From assembly GCA_052325425.1 (NCBI GenBank), contig JBKQUY010000067.1, positions 30,123-94,122 of the forward strand: a DNA stretch of 64,000 nucleotides, read 5' to 3'. Of this stretch, positions 13,866 through 21,215 are shown piece by piece; the first letter of the stretch is position 1, and each line of letters begins with the position of its first letter. The position numbers and the translations under genes were made by a program. The notes below the pieces were generated by a model. It did no database searches. It saw only the letters and a list, made by a program, of their open reading frames with translations, and had not been told where the DNA came from. Source of the DNA: Bacteroidia bacterium. Its GTDB lineage: Bacteria; Bacteroidota; Bacteroidia; JABEUT01.

Positions 13866-14843
13866 TTATAGAAAAAGGCTTAACCCCACCGTAATTAACA
13901 AACATATAAAAAGGAATTCGGGCCAAACCGCTGACTTTGCCTTTAAAAAATAGTTGGAAAAGATGAAAGAAACAGGCAATGCCACTATTACAAGTGACCT
14001 TGCATCGCGTTGCGGTGAAATAAAAACGGAAACCAGCGCGAAAAAAACAAACCAGAGCATTAAAGTCCATATTTTTTGGGCCTTAACCACATTATCGGGC
14101 AACTTATTGATAAACAGCCATAAACTTGCAATACATGTGCCCGTTATTGCAATAAGCATAAGCCATTCTTCCCAGGTAAATGACCAATGCATTCTGTAAT
14201 TACTGTGCGCTGCCAGGAATATATTATGCCAGAAATTTTCAGCAGAAAGAAATAAATAATTATACGCAAGGGCAAAGCCGAAAGGCAAAATAAATCCAAT
14301 AACCGCGGCTATCCACTCCCGCCATACCAGTGACCTTATTACAAGAATGGCAATAAACAAAAAAAGAATAAAAACTACCAGGGGTAAATAAAATATTGAT
14401 GCTATGCCAATAAATAACCCGGCATCAAAAACTTCCGATAAAGCTTTTTCCTTTTTATAGCTCGCAGCAAGCCTTCGCATAGCAAGTACAAGAAACAGGG
14501 AAGCAAATAAAGCCGGATATAAGCAAATAAGGCTGGTCCGGCATGAGGCTAATATAATAAAGAAAAAAGCCGGAAAATAAGATGATTGTTTCAGCAGGGC
14601 ATTGTTATTAATAAATGAATTCCATATAAAAGCCTGGGTTAAGAGCAGAATTATGCCAAAACCAGTAGAAAAAGCTTCAAGTTTAGCCACCCAGGCCCAT
14701 AAATCGTTAAAAAAAGGTATGGTAACGCCGTAATCAGCATGTTTAGACTGAAATATCCATATCCAAACCCATATTCCAATACCCGTAATTATTGTAAACA
14801 GGAGCAATACAATAGGATTTGACTTTAATAACCTTATAAACAT
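13866..14843 (-). CDS. Polytopic integral membrane protein, function unknown
   Basis: About 10 predicted TM helices. Start set at the internal ATG (MFIRLLKS...) to avoid overlapping the divergent promoter region. Confidence 0.65.
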   Translation of the reverse strand: MFIRLLKSNPIVLLLFTIITGIGIWVWIWIFQSKHADYGVTIPFFNDLWAWVAKLEAFSTGFGIILLLTQAFIWNSFINNNALLKQSSYFPAFFFIILASCRTSLICLYPALFASLFLVLAMRRLAASYKKEKALSEVFDAGLFIGIASIFYLPLVVFILFLFIAILVIRSLVWREWIAAVIGFILPFGFALAYNYLFLSAENFWHNIFLAAHSNYRMHWSFTWEEWLMLIAITGTCIASLWLFINKLPDNVVKAQKIWTLMLWFVFFALVSVFISPQRDARSLVIVALPVSFIFSNYFLKAKSAVWPEFLFICLLITVGLSLFL

Positions 14844-14918
14844 TGAAAAAAAATATGATTTAAAGCATCGAATCAGTGCAAGTATATATATTTTTAGTAT
14901 TGGATTAAACAAAATACT

Positions 14919-14926
14919 TATCTTTG
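14919..14926 (+). promoter_or_regulatory. -7 box TATCTTTG, 30 bp upstream of the first gene of the four-gene surface cluster
   Basis: TAnnTTTG consensus. The same ttatctttgc word recurs at 20983-20992. Confidence 0.35.
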
Positions 14927-14955
14927 CGTTTAGATAAACTATTGCATTAAGATTT

Positions 14956-15879
14956 ATGTTAACAAGATTACCATTCCATTTTAATGTTTTTATCCCCATA
15001 TTTTTTTCTGCATTCATGTTTTCGGTTCCCGCAAATGCTCAAACGGATTCGACGCATGGTAATGCCCCTCATTCCCCGCCTGTTCCCCATGATAGTATAT
15101 CAACCGGGATTGCAGTCAGCCCAGGCACGTTAAAATTCACCTGTAAACCCGGCGGAACAGAAAGTCACGAAGTTAAAATATCAAATACTACAAACAGTTC
15201 ATTCAGTTTCCAGGTATCTTTTAATGATTATGTTCAGAATAATTCAGGACAACCTTTATGGAGTAACCCCAGGGAACCTAAAAGCAGGTTTGCACTTTCG
15301 AGGTGGACAACTGTATCTCCCGCCCTTTTTACCCTGGAACCCGGAAAAACACAGAAAATAACTGTTACCGTATCTCTTCCGGATGCAGATAGCGTAAATC
15401 ATGCGTCATGGACGGTACTTGGCATTGACCAGGTACATAAAAAGCATCCATTGCCGGCGCCCGGAGAAAAAACCATCAATATGGGCGTAGTCCCGAGCAT
15501 GGGTTTTGGGGTTTATTTATACAATAACCCACCCAATGTTAAGGTAAACAATATTGAAATCAATAATTTTTTATACCATGATACAGCATATACCATACAT
15601 GGAAGGGACACAGTAATAAGAATCCTGTATTTAAAAGCGACCAATACAGGCGATGGATTGAGTTATTGCATCTCGTATGCGGAAGTAACCAATCTGCAAA
15701 CAGGTAAGACATTCCGGCTGGGCGCCCGCCAAATTACTATTCTTCCGGGTTATACCAGGGAATTTGAATATTTGTTACCCAAAGATTTGCCGGTGAATAA
15801 CTATTCGGCAGTAGGGGTAATATATTTTGGCGATAAAGTACCCAAAAAAGTGGCGCAGCTTAATTTTACAGTACATTAA
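14956..15879 (+). CDS. Secreted two-domain beta-sandwich protein, candidate periplasmic chaperone-like component
   Basis: 307 aa. Signal peptide ending ANAQ. Two Ig/MSP-like regions (VSPGTLKFTCKPGGTESHEVKISN... and ...FTLEPGKTQKITVTVSLP) reminiscent of the PapD-like fold. The functional call is by analogy only. Confidence 0.8.
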   Translation: MLTRLPFHFNVFIPIFFSAFMFSVPANAQTDSTHGNAPHSPPVPHDSISTGIAVSPGTLKFTCKPGGTESHEVKISNTTNSSFSFQVSFNDYVQNNSGQPLWSNPREPKSRFALSRWTTVSPALFTLEPGKTQKITVTVSLPDADSVNHASWTVLGIDQVHKKHPLPAPGEKTINMGVVPSMGFGVYLYNNPPNVKVNNIEINNFLYHDTAYTIHGRDTVIRILYLKATNTGDGLSYCISYAEVTNLQTGKTFRLGARQITILPGYTREFEYLLPKDLPVNNYSAVGVIYFGDKVPKKVAQLNFTVH

Positions 15880-16074
15880 AAAAATATTTAATAATACCCC
15901 TTAAAAACAACCGGATATGTAATAAAATGTAACTTAATTACTCTGTTACCGTAACAATTATATTAATTCATTAACAATTTAACAATAAAAGGAGGCGACG
16001 CACAGACACTACAGGGAAAAACTATTTGCAACTATTGATAATCAATTATATATAAACAATTAAAATCAGAATTT

Positions 16075-16887
16075 ATGAAAACAAAAATTTATGCTGCTGC
16101 TGTCCTGGGGCTTGGTTTTCTTATGTTTGGCAACTATGCCAAGGCGCAGATACAAGATGAACAGAATGTTACGATAACAATGGACCTTGAACCGGTGCTG
16201 CAACTGAACATGAACACGCCTGACGAGGTTGACTTTACATTTGATAACATACCCAGTTATTTAAGCGGGGAAATCAAATACGGGGCAACTATTTTAACGG
16301 TAAGCTCAACGGTAAGCTGGCAATTGTATGCTGCAGGTATTTCGCAAGGCTCTGTAGCTGCAGGCGACTGGGATAACCCGGTAAATTATGGAATAATTAA
16401 TGCAACCAGCGGTACCAATAAAATTCCATTGGATGCTCTTGAATTACATCAGTATCCGGCTGACCCCACTACCACAGGCCTGACACCGGCAGCAGGCTGC
16501 GCGCCAGGCGATTATTCAAACCCGTTTCAAGCTATTACAGCAGGCCCTCCTGCAACCGTTGCAGTACCGGGACTAAACAACATATTTGTGCCCGCTGCTC
16601 CTTACACGCTTCCTAAAGCAACCGATAAAATGATTGCCGGTGGTGACCCAAATACTACAGGTAATGGAATGGTTGGCGGTACATACTTGGCCACTACAAA
16701 TACAAGTGTTGCTACCAGCGGGTTCTATTATGTAATAGATTATCGCATAGTGCCCGGTTTGCCAGTTATATTTCCGGCAGCAGGGGTAGATGATTGCAGT
16801 GCTGCATCATCGCTTGTAAGCCCTGCCTTTGCAGACCCGGGTTATTATACCATGGATGTAAAGTACCTTTTAATAGAGGCGCAATAG
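16075..16887 (+). CDS. Secreted subunit-like protein A (candidate major filament subunit)
   Basis: 270 aa. Signal peptide ...YAKAQ. Ala/Gly/Pro/Thr-rich. C-terminal motif YYVIDYRIVPG shared with the next gene. Strong terminator immediately downstream. Confidence 0.85.
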   Translation: MKTKIYAAAVLGLGFLMFGNYAKAQIQDEQNVTITMDLEPVLQLNMNTPDEVDFTFDNIPSYLSGEIKYGATILTVSSTVSWQLYAAGISQGSVAAGDWDNPVNYGIINATSGTNKIPLDALELHQYPADPTTTGLTPAAGCAPGDYSNPFQAITAGPPATVAVPGLNNIFVPAAPYTLPKATDKMIAGGDPNTTGNGMVGGTYLATTNTSVATSGFYYVIDYRIVPGLPVIFPAAGVDDCSAASSLVSPAFADPGYYTMDVKYLLIEAQ

Positions 16888-16905
16888 GCAAAATATAAAT
16901 GTTAA

Positions 16906-16947
16906 AAATGAACCCCGCACTATTGCGGGGTTCATTTTATTTTTTGC
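16906..16947 (+). terminator. Rho-independent terminator (atgaaccccgcactattgcggggttcat plus T7)
   Basis: 10 bp GC-rich stem followed by a U-tract directly after the 16075..16887 gene. Confidence 0.65.
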
Positions 16948-17074
16948 TTTTAATGCCCTTCATATTGAATGAGAAACCTGTTATAACAACTTAACCATCT
17001 GGATATTCCTTACCTTGTTGATACTTATTATGAAAACAGCCAGAATTGAAGTGAGTAATAACAAGAAAACAGTA

Positions 17075-17764
17075 ATGAAAAAAATATTTTTAAATATACT
17101 ATTCTGGGGTTATTTTTTCATTACCGGCATTGGCCATTCTTTTGGGCAATGTACATCCTATAATCCCTGGCAGCCACTTACTTCATGCGGCCCTGAATAT
17201 CATTGCGACTGCGATGCCTATCCCAAAAACGGCCTGGTAATGGAAAATTCGCCCAATATCAATTTTGATTTTGAGAAGATGAGTGATTATACAGGTGGAA
17301 TAACTTTAGGCGGAGCTACTATCGTTCATATAAGGATGAGCAATGTTAACGCAGCATGCGCCGACGGTTTTCCGTGTAAGTGGAGGCTGGTAATGTATGT
17401 TGACAATTTTGGAGCGCCCGCTAATGCAAAACAGTGGGATAAAACAGCAACTTATGGTACTGGGGGGGGCTCTACACCATCAATAAGTTTGTTGCAGGTA
17501 AGGGTTTACAACGGCTGCAATACACCATTGTGTGAAGATTTTCAACCATTTACCGCTGAAGACGGCGCTGCCATTGACATTGTCAGAAGCACTGCCCTTA
17601 ATTCAGCCGGGGGCTGCAGTGGCACCAATGTAAATGGAACAGGAAGTTACCTGACTGATTATAACGAGTTTACATTTACGGTAGATTACCGGATAGTACC
17701 GGGTTATGATTTAGCTCCCGGAAATTACCAGTTGATGATTCATTTTTGTTTGGTTGAAGATTAA
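17075..17764 (+). CDS. Secreted subunit-like protein B (paralog of 16075..16887)
   Basis: Start chosen at MKKIFLN... (signal peptide ...HSFGQ). The ORF track allows 17015. Cys-rich N-terminal part. C-terminal FTFTVDYRIVPGYDL matches YYVIDYRIVPGLPV of the paralog. Confidence 0.8.
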   Translation: MKKIFLNILFWGYFFITGIGHSFGQCTSYNPWQPLTSCGPEYHCDCDAYPKNGLVMENSPNINFDFEKMSDYTGGITLGGATIVHIRMSNVNAACADGFPCKWRLVMYVDNFGAPANAKQWDKTATYGTGGGSTPSISLLQVRVYNGCNTPLCEDFQPFTAEDGAAIDIVRSTALNSAGGCSGTNVNGTGSYLTDYNEFTFTVDYRIVPGYDLAPGNYQLMIHFCLVED

Positions 17765-17811
17765 ACCTGTTTTATGCCGATTTTTTGCTTTTAAATAAAA
17801 AAGAGTAAAAC

Positions 17812-20800
17812 TTGATTAATAAGAATTACATACCTTCATTTTCAATATGTAAAAAAACTCTTCTGGTTATAAGCATGAGTATTTGCATGCAATTGCCTGC
17901 GCAGGATACTGCTCATAAAGCCGCAAGTAATACCATTGATACATTAAATGGCGCGTCGTTAAAAACCGCCCCGGTGCCGCAGAAAGAAATCCCGAAAGTT
18001 CTTACGGTAAAATTTTTACAAAGAATAGTAACTATACAGGAAGAGGATATACTCAGCAATACGCTTTCTGTCATTAACTATTCTGATTTGCCAGTTGATT
18101 TTACATTAAACGTAAATACCCCCTATAACTGGACAGATATAAGCGATGGTAAAACCAGGCGCCACTTGAACCCCGGGGACTCTCTTTTCGTACCCGTGCG
18201 CATTATACCCGCACTGGAAGTAAAAGGAGGAACAGAATATGTAATCAATGTGTTTTTACTGTCCCCGGAAGGAAGCCAGCTTACATCCGCCTATTTTTTT
18301 GCCCATACCCAGAAGATAAGTAAATGGAACATTAATGTACTTCCTGAAAACAGGATTTATTTCCGTAACCATTGTGATACCGCGTCTTTCCAGGTAAATG
18401 TTTCAAACGAGGGCAACCAGCCGGAAGATCTCGTTCTTAGCCTGAATAATGTAAAAAAACAAGGCATGCTTACGGATACAAACGGCAGAATACTTCACAC
18501 TAATTTTTATAATTTCCAGCTTGACCCTAACCATGATACCACCCTGTCCTTTAAAATGAAATATACGGGTGATTTACCGAATTTCAAGACTATGGACCTG
18601 GAAGGATATACGGCGCAAAATAATGCGGACTCAAAAACATTTCCTGTCTGGATATCGGGACAGGAAGCAAAAAAAACTGACAGTACGGCAGAATATGTGC
18701 CTGCCAAAAACGTAACTTTTGTTAAATTAACCGATATAGCATGGGCTAACCCCTATTCAGGTGAAGTATTCCCTTTAACTGTTGACATGAATACCTATAA
18801 TATATTGGGCATACAACCGGTTATGAATATTAACCTGCATGGAGATGCATTCCTCGATAACCAGGCTCACCTTTTCTATGTGGGTAATTTATATTACTCT
18901 ACTTATGCGCTCCAGCATAATTACTTTAACGGCGATAACTTTTACGCAGGTTATTTTGATAAGCGGGGAGATGATATACAGGTGGGACAGTTAGGCATGC
19001 CTTATTCTTACGGGGTTTCCATTGGCGGCTGGGGCGCAGAAGGTGACTACCGCACAGGCCTGCAAAATACGGTAGGAGGTATAATTGTAGATGGAAACAA
19101 TAATAATTCATTTGGAGCAGGTATATGGGACAAATATAAATTCTTACATACAAGCCCATTGATTAATAACCAGTTGTTTATTACCAGCGCCGGAATGGTT
19201 GAAGATTTTGAGAACAAAATCAATACATATTTTATTACCGAAACAGGAGGGCTGAACATTACAAAAAACCAGCGTATTTATTTTTCCTTAACCGGAATTG
19301 AAAAAGATTATTACAGGACTGCCAATTTTGTCAGGTTCTTTGGCGGGGCTTATGTGTTGGGCTATACGGGTAGTTTTATTCAGCACCGCCTTCTTATTTC
19401 AGATTTCTTCATTAAAACTTCCTATGATACAAATGCCCTTAATAAAAACAGGATTACCTTAAGCAACTCTATCTCCTATGAGTTAAACACGAAATGGAGG
19501 CTCCTGTTGCAAAATGTTTATTACAGCTATCCGACTCCTTATTATACTATAACCCCCACTTCCTATTCGCTTACCGATTATTTATATTTTATGCATAAAA
19601 GCAGCCCTTTTGCACCTTATATTTTTTATAATATTTTCTCGGAAGATAACCTGGGGCTTGATTTTTTTGGTATTGGCGACAGGTATAGTTATTATAATAA
19701 AGACATGAATTTCATGCTGCAGGCAGGGGTGCAGGGCGGATATAATCATCTTACAACTTACCCTTACCCGATGAATGATTATTTTTCGGCTCAACCAAAC
19801 TTATTAATGAAATATCATACGATAAGCCTACTGGCCTTTTATAACTATGGCCCGAATGGAATACCATCGCCTTCGAGTTTTTCTTCCGAAGCTTATCCGC
19901 AGATGCTTATGGTTTCTCTCCGCCAGCAATATCAATTCTTCAACAAACACTTTGTGTTAGACCATGGGCTTAACTATACTTACTTTAATCAATATTCGAG
20001 CAATACAATTGATTATAATCCTGAACTTTATTATTTCATTAACGGCTGGCGGTTTAAGGTCGGGTTAAGTTATTCGTTTAATTCAACAAACATCGCTAAT
20101 TCCCTTATTTATACAGGTGCGGCAATTCCAAATGAAAATGTAACCCCGCCCGGACCCGAGGTAAGCAACAATATATATATTAATTTCGGTATAAAGAAAG
20201 ATTTCGGCATACCGGTTCCAAAAAAATGGGCAAAATATGAATATAAAACAGTGCATTTTATTGCCTTTCTCGATTTAAACGGAGACGGCAAAATGGAACC
20301 CAACGAATCGGTTCTGGAAGACGTAGTTGTTTCAGTAACATCAAAGACGCATAGATACGAAGCGCTGACCAATGAAAAAGGAGAAGCAACTATTTTTAAC
20401 TTATGTTCGGGAGGTTATTACCAGACTGTTCAATCGCTTCGTGATTTGAAGGGCTGGTTTAATTCTTCATCAGATAGTTTATTTGTTGGTAATAAAGACA
20501 CTGTTTACCTGCCTTTCACAAAAGGAGTAAAATTATTCGGAGCTGTGATTTACCATCCAGGCCCATATTCTATTCTGACAAAAATAGACCTCTCACATAT
20601 ACAGATATCGGTAACAGATTCCACAGGAAAAGGATATAGTGCCCTTACCGATGCCAATGGCGAATTTATGATTTATATTCCCGCGGGCAAATATACCCTC
20701 ACCATGAATGATGACTGGATGGATGATCGTTTCACAGTAGCGCAAAATAATATTTCTCTGAACCTTTCACACGGAATTGACAACATATACCAGTCATTTT

Positions 20801-20898
20801 ATATTTCAGAAAAAGTAACTAAAGCTGAAATAAAACAGTTTGGCCAGCCGGGTCAATCAGGCACCCCTACTCCACCTGATGAGGTACCGCATCATTGA
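17812..20898 (+). CDS. Large outer-membrane protein, candidate usher-like or secretin-like pore of the cluster
   Basis: 1028 aa. Signal peptide. N-terminal Ig/CARDB-like region. Central roughly 550 aa is extremely Tyr/Phe/Gly/Asn-rich as in OM beta-barrels. Two C-terminal Cna-B/CarboxypepD_reg-like beta-sandwich domains (DLNGDGKMEP..., ISVTDSTGKGYSALTDANGEF...). Confidence 0.85.
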   Translation: MINKNYIPSFSICKKTLLVISMSICMQLPAQDTAHKAASNTIDTLNGASLKTAPVPQKEIPKVLTVKFLQRIVTIQEEDILSNTLSVINYSDLPVDFTLNVNTPYNWTDISDGKTRRHLNPGDSLFVPVRIIPALEVKGGTEYVINVFLLSPEGSQLTSAYFFAHTQKISKWNINVLPENRIYFRNHCDTASFQVNVSNEGNQPEDLVLSLNNVKKQGMLTDTNGRILHTNFYNFQLDPNHDTTLSFKMKYTGDLPNFKTMDLEGYTAQNNADSKTFPVWISGQEAKKTDSTAEYVPAKNVTFVKLTDIAWANPYSGEVFPLTVDMNTYNILGIQPVMNINLHGDAFLDNQAHLFYVGNLYYSTYALQHNYFNGDNFYAGYFDKRGDDIQVGQLGMPYSYGVSIGGWGAEGDYRTGLQNTVGGIIVDGNNNNSFGAGIWDKYKFLHTSPLINNQLFITSAGMVEDFENKINTYFITETGGLNITKNQRIYFSLTGIEKDYYRTANFVRFFGGAYVLGYTGSFIQHRLLISDFFIKTSYDTNALNKNRITLSNSISYELNTKWRLLLQNVYYSYPTPYYTITPTSYSLTDYLYFMHKSSPFAPYIFYNIFSEDNLGLDFFGIGDRYSYYNKDMNFMLQAGVQGGYNHLTTYPYPMNDYFSAQPNLLMKYHTISLLAFYNYGPNGIPSPSSFSSEAYPQMLMVSLRQQYQFFNKHFVLDHGLNYTYFNQYSSNTIDYNPELYYFINGWRFKVGLSYSFNSTNIANSLIYTGAAIPNENVTPPGPEVSNNIYINFGIKKDFGIPVPKKWAKYEYKTVHFIAFLDLNGDGKMEPNESVLEDVVVSVTSKTHRYEALTNEKGEATIFNLCSGGYYQTVQSLRDLKGWFNSSSDSLFVGNKDTVYLPFTKGVKLFGAVIYHPGPYSILTKIDLSHIQISVTDSTGKGYSALTDANGEFMIYIPAGKYTLTMNDDWMDDRFTVAQNNISLNLSHGIDNIYQSFYISEKVTKAEIKQFGQPGQSGTPTPPDEVPHH

Positions 20899-20983
20899 TA
20901 ATAATTATTATATTTACTCACAGGTAATTTATTTTTTTTAATTGAATTCGCGAATATAAATTCATCATTTTAAAAAGATAATT

Positions 20984-20991
20984 TATCTTTG
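20984..20991 (+). promoter_or_regulatory. -7 box TATCTTTG upstream of the small ORF 21009..21215
   Basis: Same word as at 14919. 18 bp before the ATG. Confidence 0.3.
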
Positions 20992-21008
20992 CCCAAAATA
21001 AGATTATT

Positions 21009-21215
21009 ATGTTGATTAATTGGTATAGTTACTCTGCTTCGCCATTTTTTAATTTTCTTGGCCGCGCCTTTGAATGGTCATTTCGTATTTTGCAAAAATT
21101 AGGTGTTGGCCCCGACGTATTCTTTATTTCGGCTATTTGCATATTGTTCATTACCTGGATGTTTATGCTTCGCCACTATGATTCGAAGGGTAAGGACAAG
21201 GGTATTATTGATTAA
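21009..21215 (+). CDS. Possible small single-TM membrane protein (68 aa)
   Basis: One clear hydrophobic helix VFFISAICILFITWMFML. Preceded by a promoter-like box. Convergent with fumarylacetoacetase. Confidence 0.3.
   Translation: MLINWYSYSASPFFNFLGRAFEWSFRILQKLGVGPDVFFISAICILFITWMFMLRHYDSKGKDKGIID

Follow-up and report, generated by a model that had tools for sequence, protein, structure and literature searches.

A 64,000-nucleotide stretch of DNA from a Bacteroidia bacterium (contig JBKQUY010000067.1 of assembly GCA_052325425.1, positions 30,123 to 94,122; hereafter the window) carries two neighbouring genes for secreted proteins, A and B, which probably encode the major subunit and the initiator or tip subunit of a Bacteroidota pilus of the TLP-1 type. 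The same reading includes an attenuating hairpin between the two genes, a chaperone encoded upstream (chap) and an outer-membrane platform encoded downstream (giant). Unless stated otherwise, all features lie on the + strand and coordinates are those of the window. TLP-1a (PDB 9IKJ) and TLP-1b (9IKK) are 8-nm tubular fibrils whose structures were determined by cryo-electron microscopy straight from filtered pond water in the 2024 CryoSeek study, and in which the N-terminal strand β1 of protomer n+4 is the donor strand into protomer n (PMC11494351). The authors of that study could not name the source organism; their own metagenome and proteome gave no matching sequence, and the only look-alikes they reported were unannotated AlphaFold models, of which the best came from a Flavobacteriales bacterium (PMC11494351).

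Gene A is a homologue of the TLP-1 pilin

Gene A (16075–16887) encodes 270 residues, of which 1–24 form a signal peptide and Q25 begins the mature chain. With gene B (17075–17764; 229 residues) it forms a pair of same-strand open reading frames in 16075–17764. A phmmer search of PDB sequences with A matches 9ikk_A at E 6.6e-36 and 9ikj_A at E 1.1e-35, aligning A residues 28–268 with chain residues 4–236. On this alignment, A is homologous to TLP-1 over the whole mature chain. The alignment offset places residue 1 of the fibril chain at Q25, the first residue past the predicted cleavage site AKA↓Q. We found 393 homologues of A, every one of them unannotated. The subclade nearest TLP-1 is 54–57% identical to the density-derived TLP-1 sequences, and for one of its members (P0069, 54%) the gene arrangement matches the cassette described below.

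The N-terminal peptide of A is QIQDEQNVTITMDL. Residues 28–38 (16156–16188), DEQNVTITMDL, alternate V, I, M and L and align with SEQNVTVTMDL of TLP-1a/b. By homology to the solved fibre, QNVTITMDL is the exchanged donor strand of A. In 22 A homologues the residues E29, V32, T33 and T35 of this segment are invariant, and the N-terminal block is the most conserved in the protein, along with IDYRIVPGLPxxFP and the C-terminal PGvYTMxVKYvLlE. The features that A has in common with TLP-1 are the N-terminal donor sequence, the FR/YR-(I/V)VP motif and the C-terminal strand. From this homology we would expect A's organism to form an 8-nm tube with n+4 exchange. The original prediction, made before these comparisons, described A and B as secreted paralogous subunits that exchange donor strands through a conserved C-terminal strand. 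The first part agrees with the homology of A to TLP-1, and the second does not, as the TLP-1 donor is N-terminal. Nor is the C-terminal strand alone conserved when homologues are aligned, the most conserved block of the A family being its N-terminus.

The shared DYRIVPG motif in the model of the subunit fold

The motif on which the C-terminal proposal was based, DYRIVPG, is indeed present in both genes, at residues 222–228 of A (16738–16758; codons GAT TAT CGC ATA GTG CCC GGT) and residues 204–210 of B (17684–17704; codons GAT TAC CGG ATA GTA CCG GGT). In A, where D222, Y223, R224 and P227 are invariant across the family, it aligns to SFRVVPA of TLP-1. In the AlphaFold2 model of B, TFTVDYRI forms the penultimate strand (200–207) and VPG opens the turn to the last strand (216–228). 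The corresponding assignment in A, to the end of the penultimate core strand and the turn, is taken from this homologous model. As modelled, DYRIVPG is part of the subunit's own sandwich and neither a terminal nor a swapped strand.

Type V pili (FimA/Mfa1) occur in the same phylum and are likewise filaments whose Ig-like subunits exchange strands. Their pilins are made as lipoprotein precursors, mature by proteolysis and have C-terminal donor strands. The original prediction had called DYRIVPG a conserved terminal β-strand, which would make it the exchanged donor as in these Bacteroidia pili, and two points agree with that: A and B carry exactly the same motif, which hardly varies within either family, and the host phylum is generally known for such pili. 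The structure of the solved homologue TLP-1, which swaps N-terminal β1, contradicts it (PMC11494351). Moreover, 20–40 residues, including the true last strand, come after DYRIVPG, and the B model has the motif as the penultimate strand of the subunit's own sandwich. Assignment to type V pili was also rejected directly: the signals of A and B are of the signal-peptidase-I type without a lipobox Cys (…YAKA↓Q in A, …SFGQ↓C in B), neither protein has a FimA/Mfa Pfam match, and the donor strand of A is N-terminal by TLP-1 homology. We give a C-terminal donor almost no credence.

In the TLP-1 fibril, β6 and β7 of the lateral neighbour contact the incoming donor strand electrostatically (PMC11494351). 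By analogy, the outward-facing D and R of DYRIVPG may be conserved for a TLP-1-like lattice contact.

Gene B is a paralogue of A without a donor segment

The stop side of gene B is fixed at 17764, and its most plausible start is ATG 17075, which gives a typical signal peptide; alternative starts are TTG 17015 and ATG 17030, the latter used by NCBI. BLASTP aligns A and B over ~200 residues at E 8e-6, and hhalign aligns the two families over 190 columns (Prob 99.5%, E 2e-22), so the shared DYRIVPG is not a chance resemblance. The profile alignment runs from the first body strand to the C-terminus. Beyond the motif, it includes the N-terminal half (DxxPxxxLxM...F.FD...Y.GG) and the last strand (PG.Y.....L.E), which corrects the earlier view of the motif as the only clearly conserved stretch; from these alignments, A and B are paralogues across the whole body. 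The donor segment of A is left unmatched, and neither the family alignments nor hhalign revealed an equivalent segment in B.

The AlphaFold2 model of B, built from a 48-sequence alignment, is of reasonable quality (predicted local distance difference test, pLDDT, 77; predicted template modelling score, pTM, 0.72). Its best Foldseek matches are TLP-1a/b at E 7e-9 and 2e-8, followed by FimA, FimG, the FimH pilin domain, PapH, FimI and CfaB at E 3e-3 to 8e-2. The direct sequence match of B to TLP-1 is weak (E 6e-5).

B contains 10 Cys, and its mature form begins AQ↓C. The N-terminal Cys of short-type B proteins runs directly into the first body strand, and long-type proteins carry a loop of ~10 residues, Cys-x8-Cys, at the N-terminus. 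The mature N-terminus is accordingly 3–4 residues long, or a short loop predicted to be disulfide-tied to the last strand. The B alignment derived from the loci has four invariant Cys. Across 103 proteins there is perfect covariation between the extra N-terminal Cys and a last-strand Cys (FCLVE), the latter being found in 65/65 long-type and 0/38 short-type sequences; four apparent exceptions carry the extra Cys inside the signal peptide. This covariation implies a disulfide that staples the N-terminus of B to the groove-lining last strand.

A subunit without a donor strand can accept a strand at most and cannot donate one, which leaves only the oldest end of the fibre as a place for it. B is therefore likely to be the initiator or tip subunit; it lacks an N-terminal extension, as does the tip adhesin of chaperone-usher pili. 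The sequence is compatible with this end being either distal, with growth from the base as in chaperone-usher pili, or cell-proximal, with growth at the free end. In one alternative to a distal tip, B is a cell-proximal nucleator or anchor, comparable to CsgB for curli or TapA for TasA: giant exports A monomers, which polymerise outside on B with growth at the free end, and chap is a holdase only. A subunit that accepts without donating fits any first subunit, wherever growth occurs, and a four-protofilament n+4 lattice (PMC11494351) would be hard to extrude via one usher. Free TLP-1 fibrils are also abundant in filtered water (PMC11494351), and usher homology was not detected in the comparison of giant with FimD or by Pfam in 30 orthologues. 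Against this, a periplasmic Ig-like protein dedicated to the system, together with a very large outer-membrane protein of several domains, resembles the logic of chaperone-usher systems, and the sequence of B has no recognisable membrane or cell-wall anchor. We regard the nucleator as unlikely, while giving it real weight.

Much less probable is that B terminates or inhibits assembly like FimI or PapH. Both proteins are among the Foldseek matches of the B model, and the gene for B, a low-copy paralogue, comes directly after that of the major subunit, an order also seen for fimI and fimA. Terminators in donor-strand exchange must, however, give an N-terminal strand to the last-added subunit, and B has none; the PapH and FimI scores are also no better than those of FimA, FimG and FimH. 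An initiator or tip role of B remains the preferred assignment.

A conserved four-gene cassette with a hairpin after A

We looked at three A homologues first and then at 80 loci from species-representative genomes; 82 distinct loci entered the comparison. The genes chap, A, B and giant all recur in essentially every adequately flanked locus, whereas the flanks are unrelated. The order is chap-A-B-giant in most loci and is rearranged in about 10.

The hairpin and T-run that the original prediction placed after the first gene are real. An intrinsic-terminator-like element (16905–16948) starts 18 nt past the A stop and consists of a stem-loop (16905–16938) of 15 pairs, 7 of them GC, with a loop of 4, followed by ATTTTTTGCT, with the T-tract at 16939–16948. 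RNAfold gives –29 kcal/mol for 16885–16960 (z = –5.95), and 0/200 shuffles fold as well. An Rfam scan of 14500–21200 returned only sub-threshold leader or terminator look-alikes at the hairpin. In all 82 loci we scanned the 120 nt past each cassette gene for a single hairpin followed by an 8-nt stretch with five or more T, counting those with a folding free energy of –12 kcal/mol or lower. Such a hairpin follows A in 66/80 loci, chap in 3/77, B in 2/78 and giant in 0/65, so that the proposed arrangement of major subunit, hairpin and minor genes holds family-wide. It starts a median of 15 nt past the A stop codon. The hairpin sequences are unrelated between loci, which implies that structure and position are what is maintained.

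The spacing around the hairpin bears on its function. From the end of the T-tract to the B start the median distance is 13.5 nt (at most 40 nt in 34 of the 42 loci with a confidently called B start), and the median gap between B and giant is 4 nt. This mostly leaves no room for a separate promoter after the hairpin, so B and giant would usually be transcribed through it, and partial termination is the most economical explanation. The best reading of the element is thus attenuation, possibly combined with stabilisation of the 3' end of the A message. A high ratio of A to B fits the need for thousands of A and few B per fibre.

Alternatively, the hairpin could be an ordinary efficient terminator of a transcript that is monocistronic or covers chap and A, and mainly give a very abundant mRNA a stable 3' end; B and giant would then be transcribed separately, from a promoter located either within the end of A or between A and B, with no attenuation. 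In favour of this are the high stability of the hairpin (–23 to –29 kcal/mol) and its good T-tract, the 128 nt between the hairpin and the B start in the window, and the persistence of hairpins where chap too lies downstream of A (L068, L074). The short T-tract-B gaps in 34 of 42 loci are, on the other hand, too small for a promoter and a 5' untranslated region. The Bacteroidota –7 motif TAnnTTTG is also rare in the 150 nt upstream of B (4/64 loci) and giant (6/56), compared with 20/77 for chap and 7/79 for A, and the A-B gap of the window contains none. On balance we consider separate transcription improbable, and partial termination is retained as the preferred explanation. A candidate –7 motif, TATCTTTG, lies at 14919–14926, 30 nt upstream of chap. 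Over the whole window the pattern shows no enrichment, and the evidence for this candidate promoter is weak. A sigma-70 promoter scan likewise showed no enrichment, this promoter type being the wrong one for the phylum.

A GC-rich hairpin with a U-tract directly after the major-subunit stop, as known from fimA and papA, is found in the window and in most of the related loci. In Escherichia coli K-12 the position after fimA is occupied by an annotated terminator-derived small RNA: RefSeq places fimR2 exactly at the fimA-fimI hairpin (L087, 2675–2709). This is a precedent for stable small RNAs from post-pilin terminator hairpins, and 16888–16948 of the window could likewise yield a 3'-derived small RNA. 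Several loci with chap after giant have no strong hairpin after A, which hints that hairpin and gene order co-vary.

The upstream Ig-like protein chap

The first cassette gene, chap (14956–15879), encodes a secreted protein of 307 residues in the DUF916/WxLIP_PGBD family, probably with two Ig-like domains. It has a signal peptide and ends …AQLNFTVH, with no C-terminal hydrophobic or transmembrane helix. Two Pfam families score above their cutoffs, WxLIP_PGBD (PF06030; 29.8 bits, cutoff 27.3) and fn3_5 (32.2 bits, cutoff 27.6). Among 33 orthologues, 30 match WxLIP_PGBD at E ≤ 0.1 (best 1.9e-8), 20 match MSP and 3 match PapD_N, and the N-terminal domain matches the related Ig-like families MSP, ASH and Cep192. 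The PapD_N match is below cutoff (E 0.076 for chap of the window, best 0.003 among the 3/33 orthologues) and PapD_C gives none; by sequence, chap is not a PapD-family chaperone.

WxLIP proteins (DUF916-DUF3324) consist of two tandem Ig-like domains and insert a strand into the incomplete β-sandwich of their WxL partner (PMC10599100); the structure of a complex is available as PDB 9I25. Strand insertion of this kind is the same activity as donor-strand complementation, and by this analogy chap probably acts in the periplasm by capping the grooves of both A and B. The profile of chap matches the EfmWxLIP1 chain weakly (E 0.08). The second WxLIP domain, DUF3324 (WxLIP_HBD), is recognised in 2/33 orthologues only, and Pfam finds no WxL domain in A or B. 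The chap profile has synaptotagmin C2 as its top match in the PDB (C-terminal domain, E 5e-4), which we judged to be a generic β-sandwich resemblance and rejected. A 383-residue multi-pass membrane reading frame on the opposite strand (13866–15017, –) overlaps the annotated chap start by about 60 nt, so the listed start of one or the other probably lies too far upstream.

The large downstream protein giant

The last gene, giant (17812–20898), encodes a secreted protein of 1028 residues that we propose as an outer-membrane assembly and secretion platform. Its family has 298 representatives at E ≤ 1e-30, and in the compared loci the gene is always syntenic with the rest of the cassette. Pfam recognises only CarboxypepD_reg, SpaA and SdrD_B (transthyretin-like domains) at the C-terminus. 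The Usher family (PF00577) matches 0/30 giant orthologues, even at E ≤ 1, and a giant profile search of PDB sequences returned no usher. A low-confidence AlphaFold2 model shows two N-terminal Ig-like domains (pLDDT 70–80), a central barrel-like region of at least 17 long β-hairpin strands and two C-terminal sandwiches that are transthyretin-like. FimD and PapC are the sole barrel proteins among the top 50 Foldseek matches of this model (template modelling score 0.1–0.17). The protein probably forms the outer-membrane export and assembly site.

Residues 62–251 of giant (17995–18564) align colinearly and weakly with residues 50–277 of chap (15103–15786; hhalign E 0.0014, Prob 18%), and the giant model also matches WxLIP and CEP192 SPD-2 structures in Foldseek. 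On this basis giant may carry a built-in chaperone-like module. The NCBI gene model of giant (P0121, 1003 residues) starts 25 codons later and has no signal peptide; with TTG 17812 as start, a plausible signal (…ICMQLPA↓QD) is regained.

A proposed assembly scheme

Taken together, these elements suggest the following scheme. Signal peptidase would cut at AKA↓Q and free the N-terminal strand QNVTITMDL of A as a donor, which would fill the open groove of another A, n+4 into n, and so build the 8-nm tube. B would have the same incomplete Ig-like body, with the DYRIVPG strand and the groove-lining last strand, and would take a strand without being able to give one; it would sit at the oldest end of the fibre as initiator or tip, in few copies per fibre. 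The hairpin and T-run would end most transcripts, stabilise the A message or do both, and the read-through fraction would express B and the tightly coupled giant, giving a high ratio of A to B and giant. In the periplasm chap would cap subunit grooves by strand complementation, and giant would form the export and assembly site in the outer membrane.

Several points weigh against parts of this scheme. With n+4 exchange, a fibre is made up of four protofilaments linked by strands, and a single-file usher mechanism offers no obvious explanation for this. The domain order of giant resembles that of an usher in a way that is only suggestive, since the model is poor (pLDDT 49.7) and hhalign finds no significant similarity to FimD (Prob 0.1). 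Comparison of chap with FimC is equally negative (Prob 0.2%), both being weak tests with a single-sequence comparator. In the model of B, residues 23–50 are of low confidence, and an open groove beside the stapled N-terminal segment is assumed. A strong hairpin after A is missing in 14/80 loci. In the window itself 128 nt separate the T-tract from the B start (68–83 nt with the alternative starts), so an internal promoter may lie there, and termination efficiency and read-through are deduced from spacing only.

Comparison with known systems

TLP-1 is the closest known system, with A as a whole-chain homologue and the fold of B also matching TLP-1 chains best. In chaperone-usher pili (Fim, Pap, CFA/I and the archaic Csu/CupE), an incomplete Ig-like fold is likewise completed by the N-terminal strand of another subunit. 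An incomplete Ig-like pilin with an N-terminal donor is what the TLP-1 homology (PMC11494351) and the Foldseek matches of B to FimA, FimG, PapH and CfaB indicate here. The set of genes also follows chaperone-usher logic, with a periplasmic Ig-like protein, a major subunit, a minor subunit and a large outer-membrane protein. The donor, however, comes from n+4 in the TLP-1 fibre (PMC11494351) and from n+1 in chaperone-usher pili, so that four strand-linked protofilaments form a tube, and giant-type proteins (1000–1460 residues) are larger than an usher and have different flanking domains.

The original prediction likened the genes to a classical fimbrial operon, but membership of that class fails the tests that are defined by sequence. 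No threshold match to Usher, PapD_N/PapD_C, Fimbrial or SCPU was found with Pfam and NCBIfam in the four proteins or with Pfam in 33 chap and 30 giant orthologues, and the hhalign comparisons with FimC and FimD were negative. Given the missing Fimbrial and SCPU matches, the resemblance to pilins is structural and does not amount to family membership. The cassette machinery is, at this level, not homologous to the classical chaperone-usher proteins. With WxLIP of the Gram-positive WxL clusters (PMC10599100; PDB 9I25, 9I1Y), chap shares the PF06030 match above gathering score. It differs in lacking the C-terminal transmembrane helix, in belonging to a diderm periplasm and in having TLP-1-type pilins as partners instead of WxL-domain proteins.

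The TLP-1-type fibre is known as a structure; what this analysis adds is its cassette of four genes, the B paralogue without a donor strand and the hairpin conserved after A. We found no paper that links TLP-1 to a gene cluster or that describes its genes, host phylum, B, accessory proteins or hairpin; a paper on a cyanobacterial tubular pilus (PMC12397347) concerns an unrelated system. CryoSeek 2024 left the organism, genes and assembly of TLP-1 unassigned. This locus and its ~200 relatives supply the host phylum, Bacteroidota, a four-gene cassette and a cultured carrier, Flavicella marina 2A-7, as well as a candidate cap subunit, chaperone and outer-membrane platform.

More tentatively, and with somewhat less than an even chance in our estimation, the cassette could represent an undescribed Bacteroidota-wide pathway that resembles chaperone-usher assembly and uses unrelated parts: a soluble chaperone of the DUF916/WxLIP type, a new outer-membrane family of ~1000–1460 residues and a disulfide-stapled donor-less cap, building four-protofilament tubes and giving the genetic origin of the freshwater TLP-1 fibrils. 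If the accessory roles are true, strand-exchange pilus assembly would have been built at least twice from different parts, and the DUF916/WxLIP fold would serve monoderm and diderm bacteria alike as a general strand-complementing chaperone. The conserved hairpin would offer a simple rule for subunit stoichiometry outside Proteobacteria.

Distribution and variation of the cassette

An A relative is encoded in 199 genomes, nearly all of them metagenome-assembled genomes of Bacteroidota that come from water, sediment and sludge. One of the 199 belongs to a cultured organism, F. marina 2A-7, the sole cultured isolate with the full cassette among the 80 listed loci (L083; NZ_VYVA01000004.1, about 365.5–371 kb). 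The hairpin after A is weaker in this strain (–11.4 kcal/mol), and B belongs to the short type with a single N-terminal Cys. In the rearranged loci, chap lies after giant in eight (L023, L040, L047, L059, L063, L075, L077 and L078) and between A and B in two (L068 and L074). One Bacteroidales metagenome-assembled genome has tandem copies of A (L027, 7001–7786 and 7851–8627), the first of which, the only one scanned, has no strong hairpin. In the lineage of Bacteroidetes bacterium GWF2_35_48 / RIFOXYA12, a toxin-antitoxin-like DUF433/DUF5615 pair is inserted between chap and A and splits the cassette (L001, 7116–7675; likewise L002 and L011).

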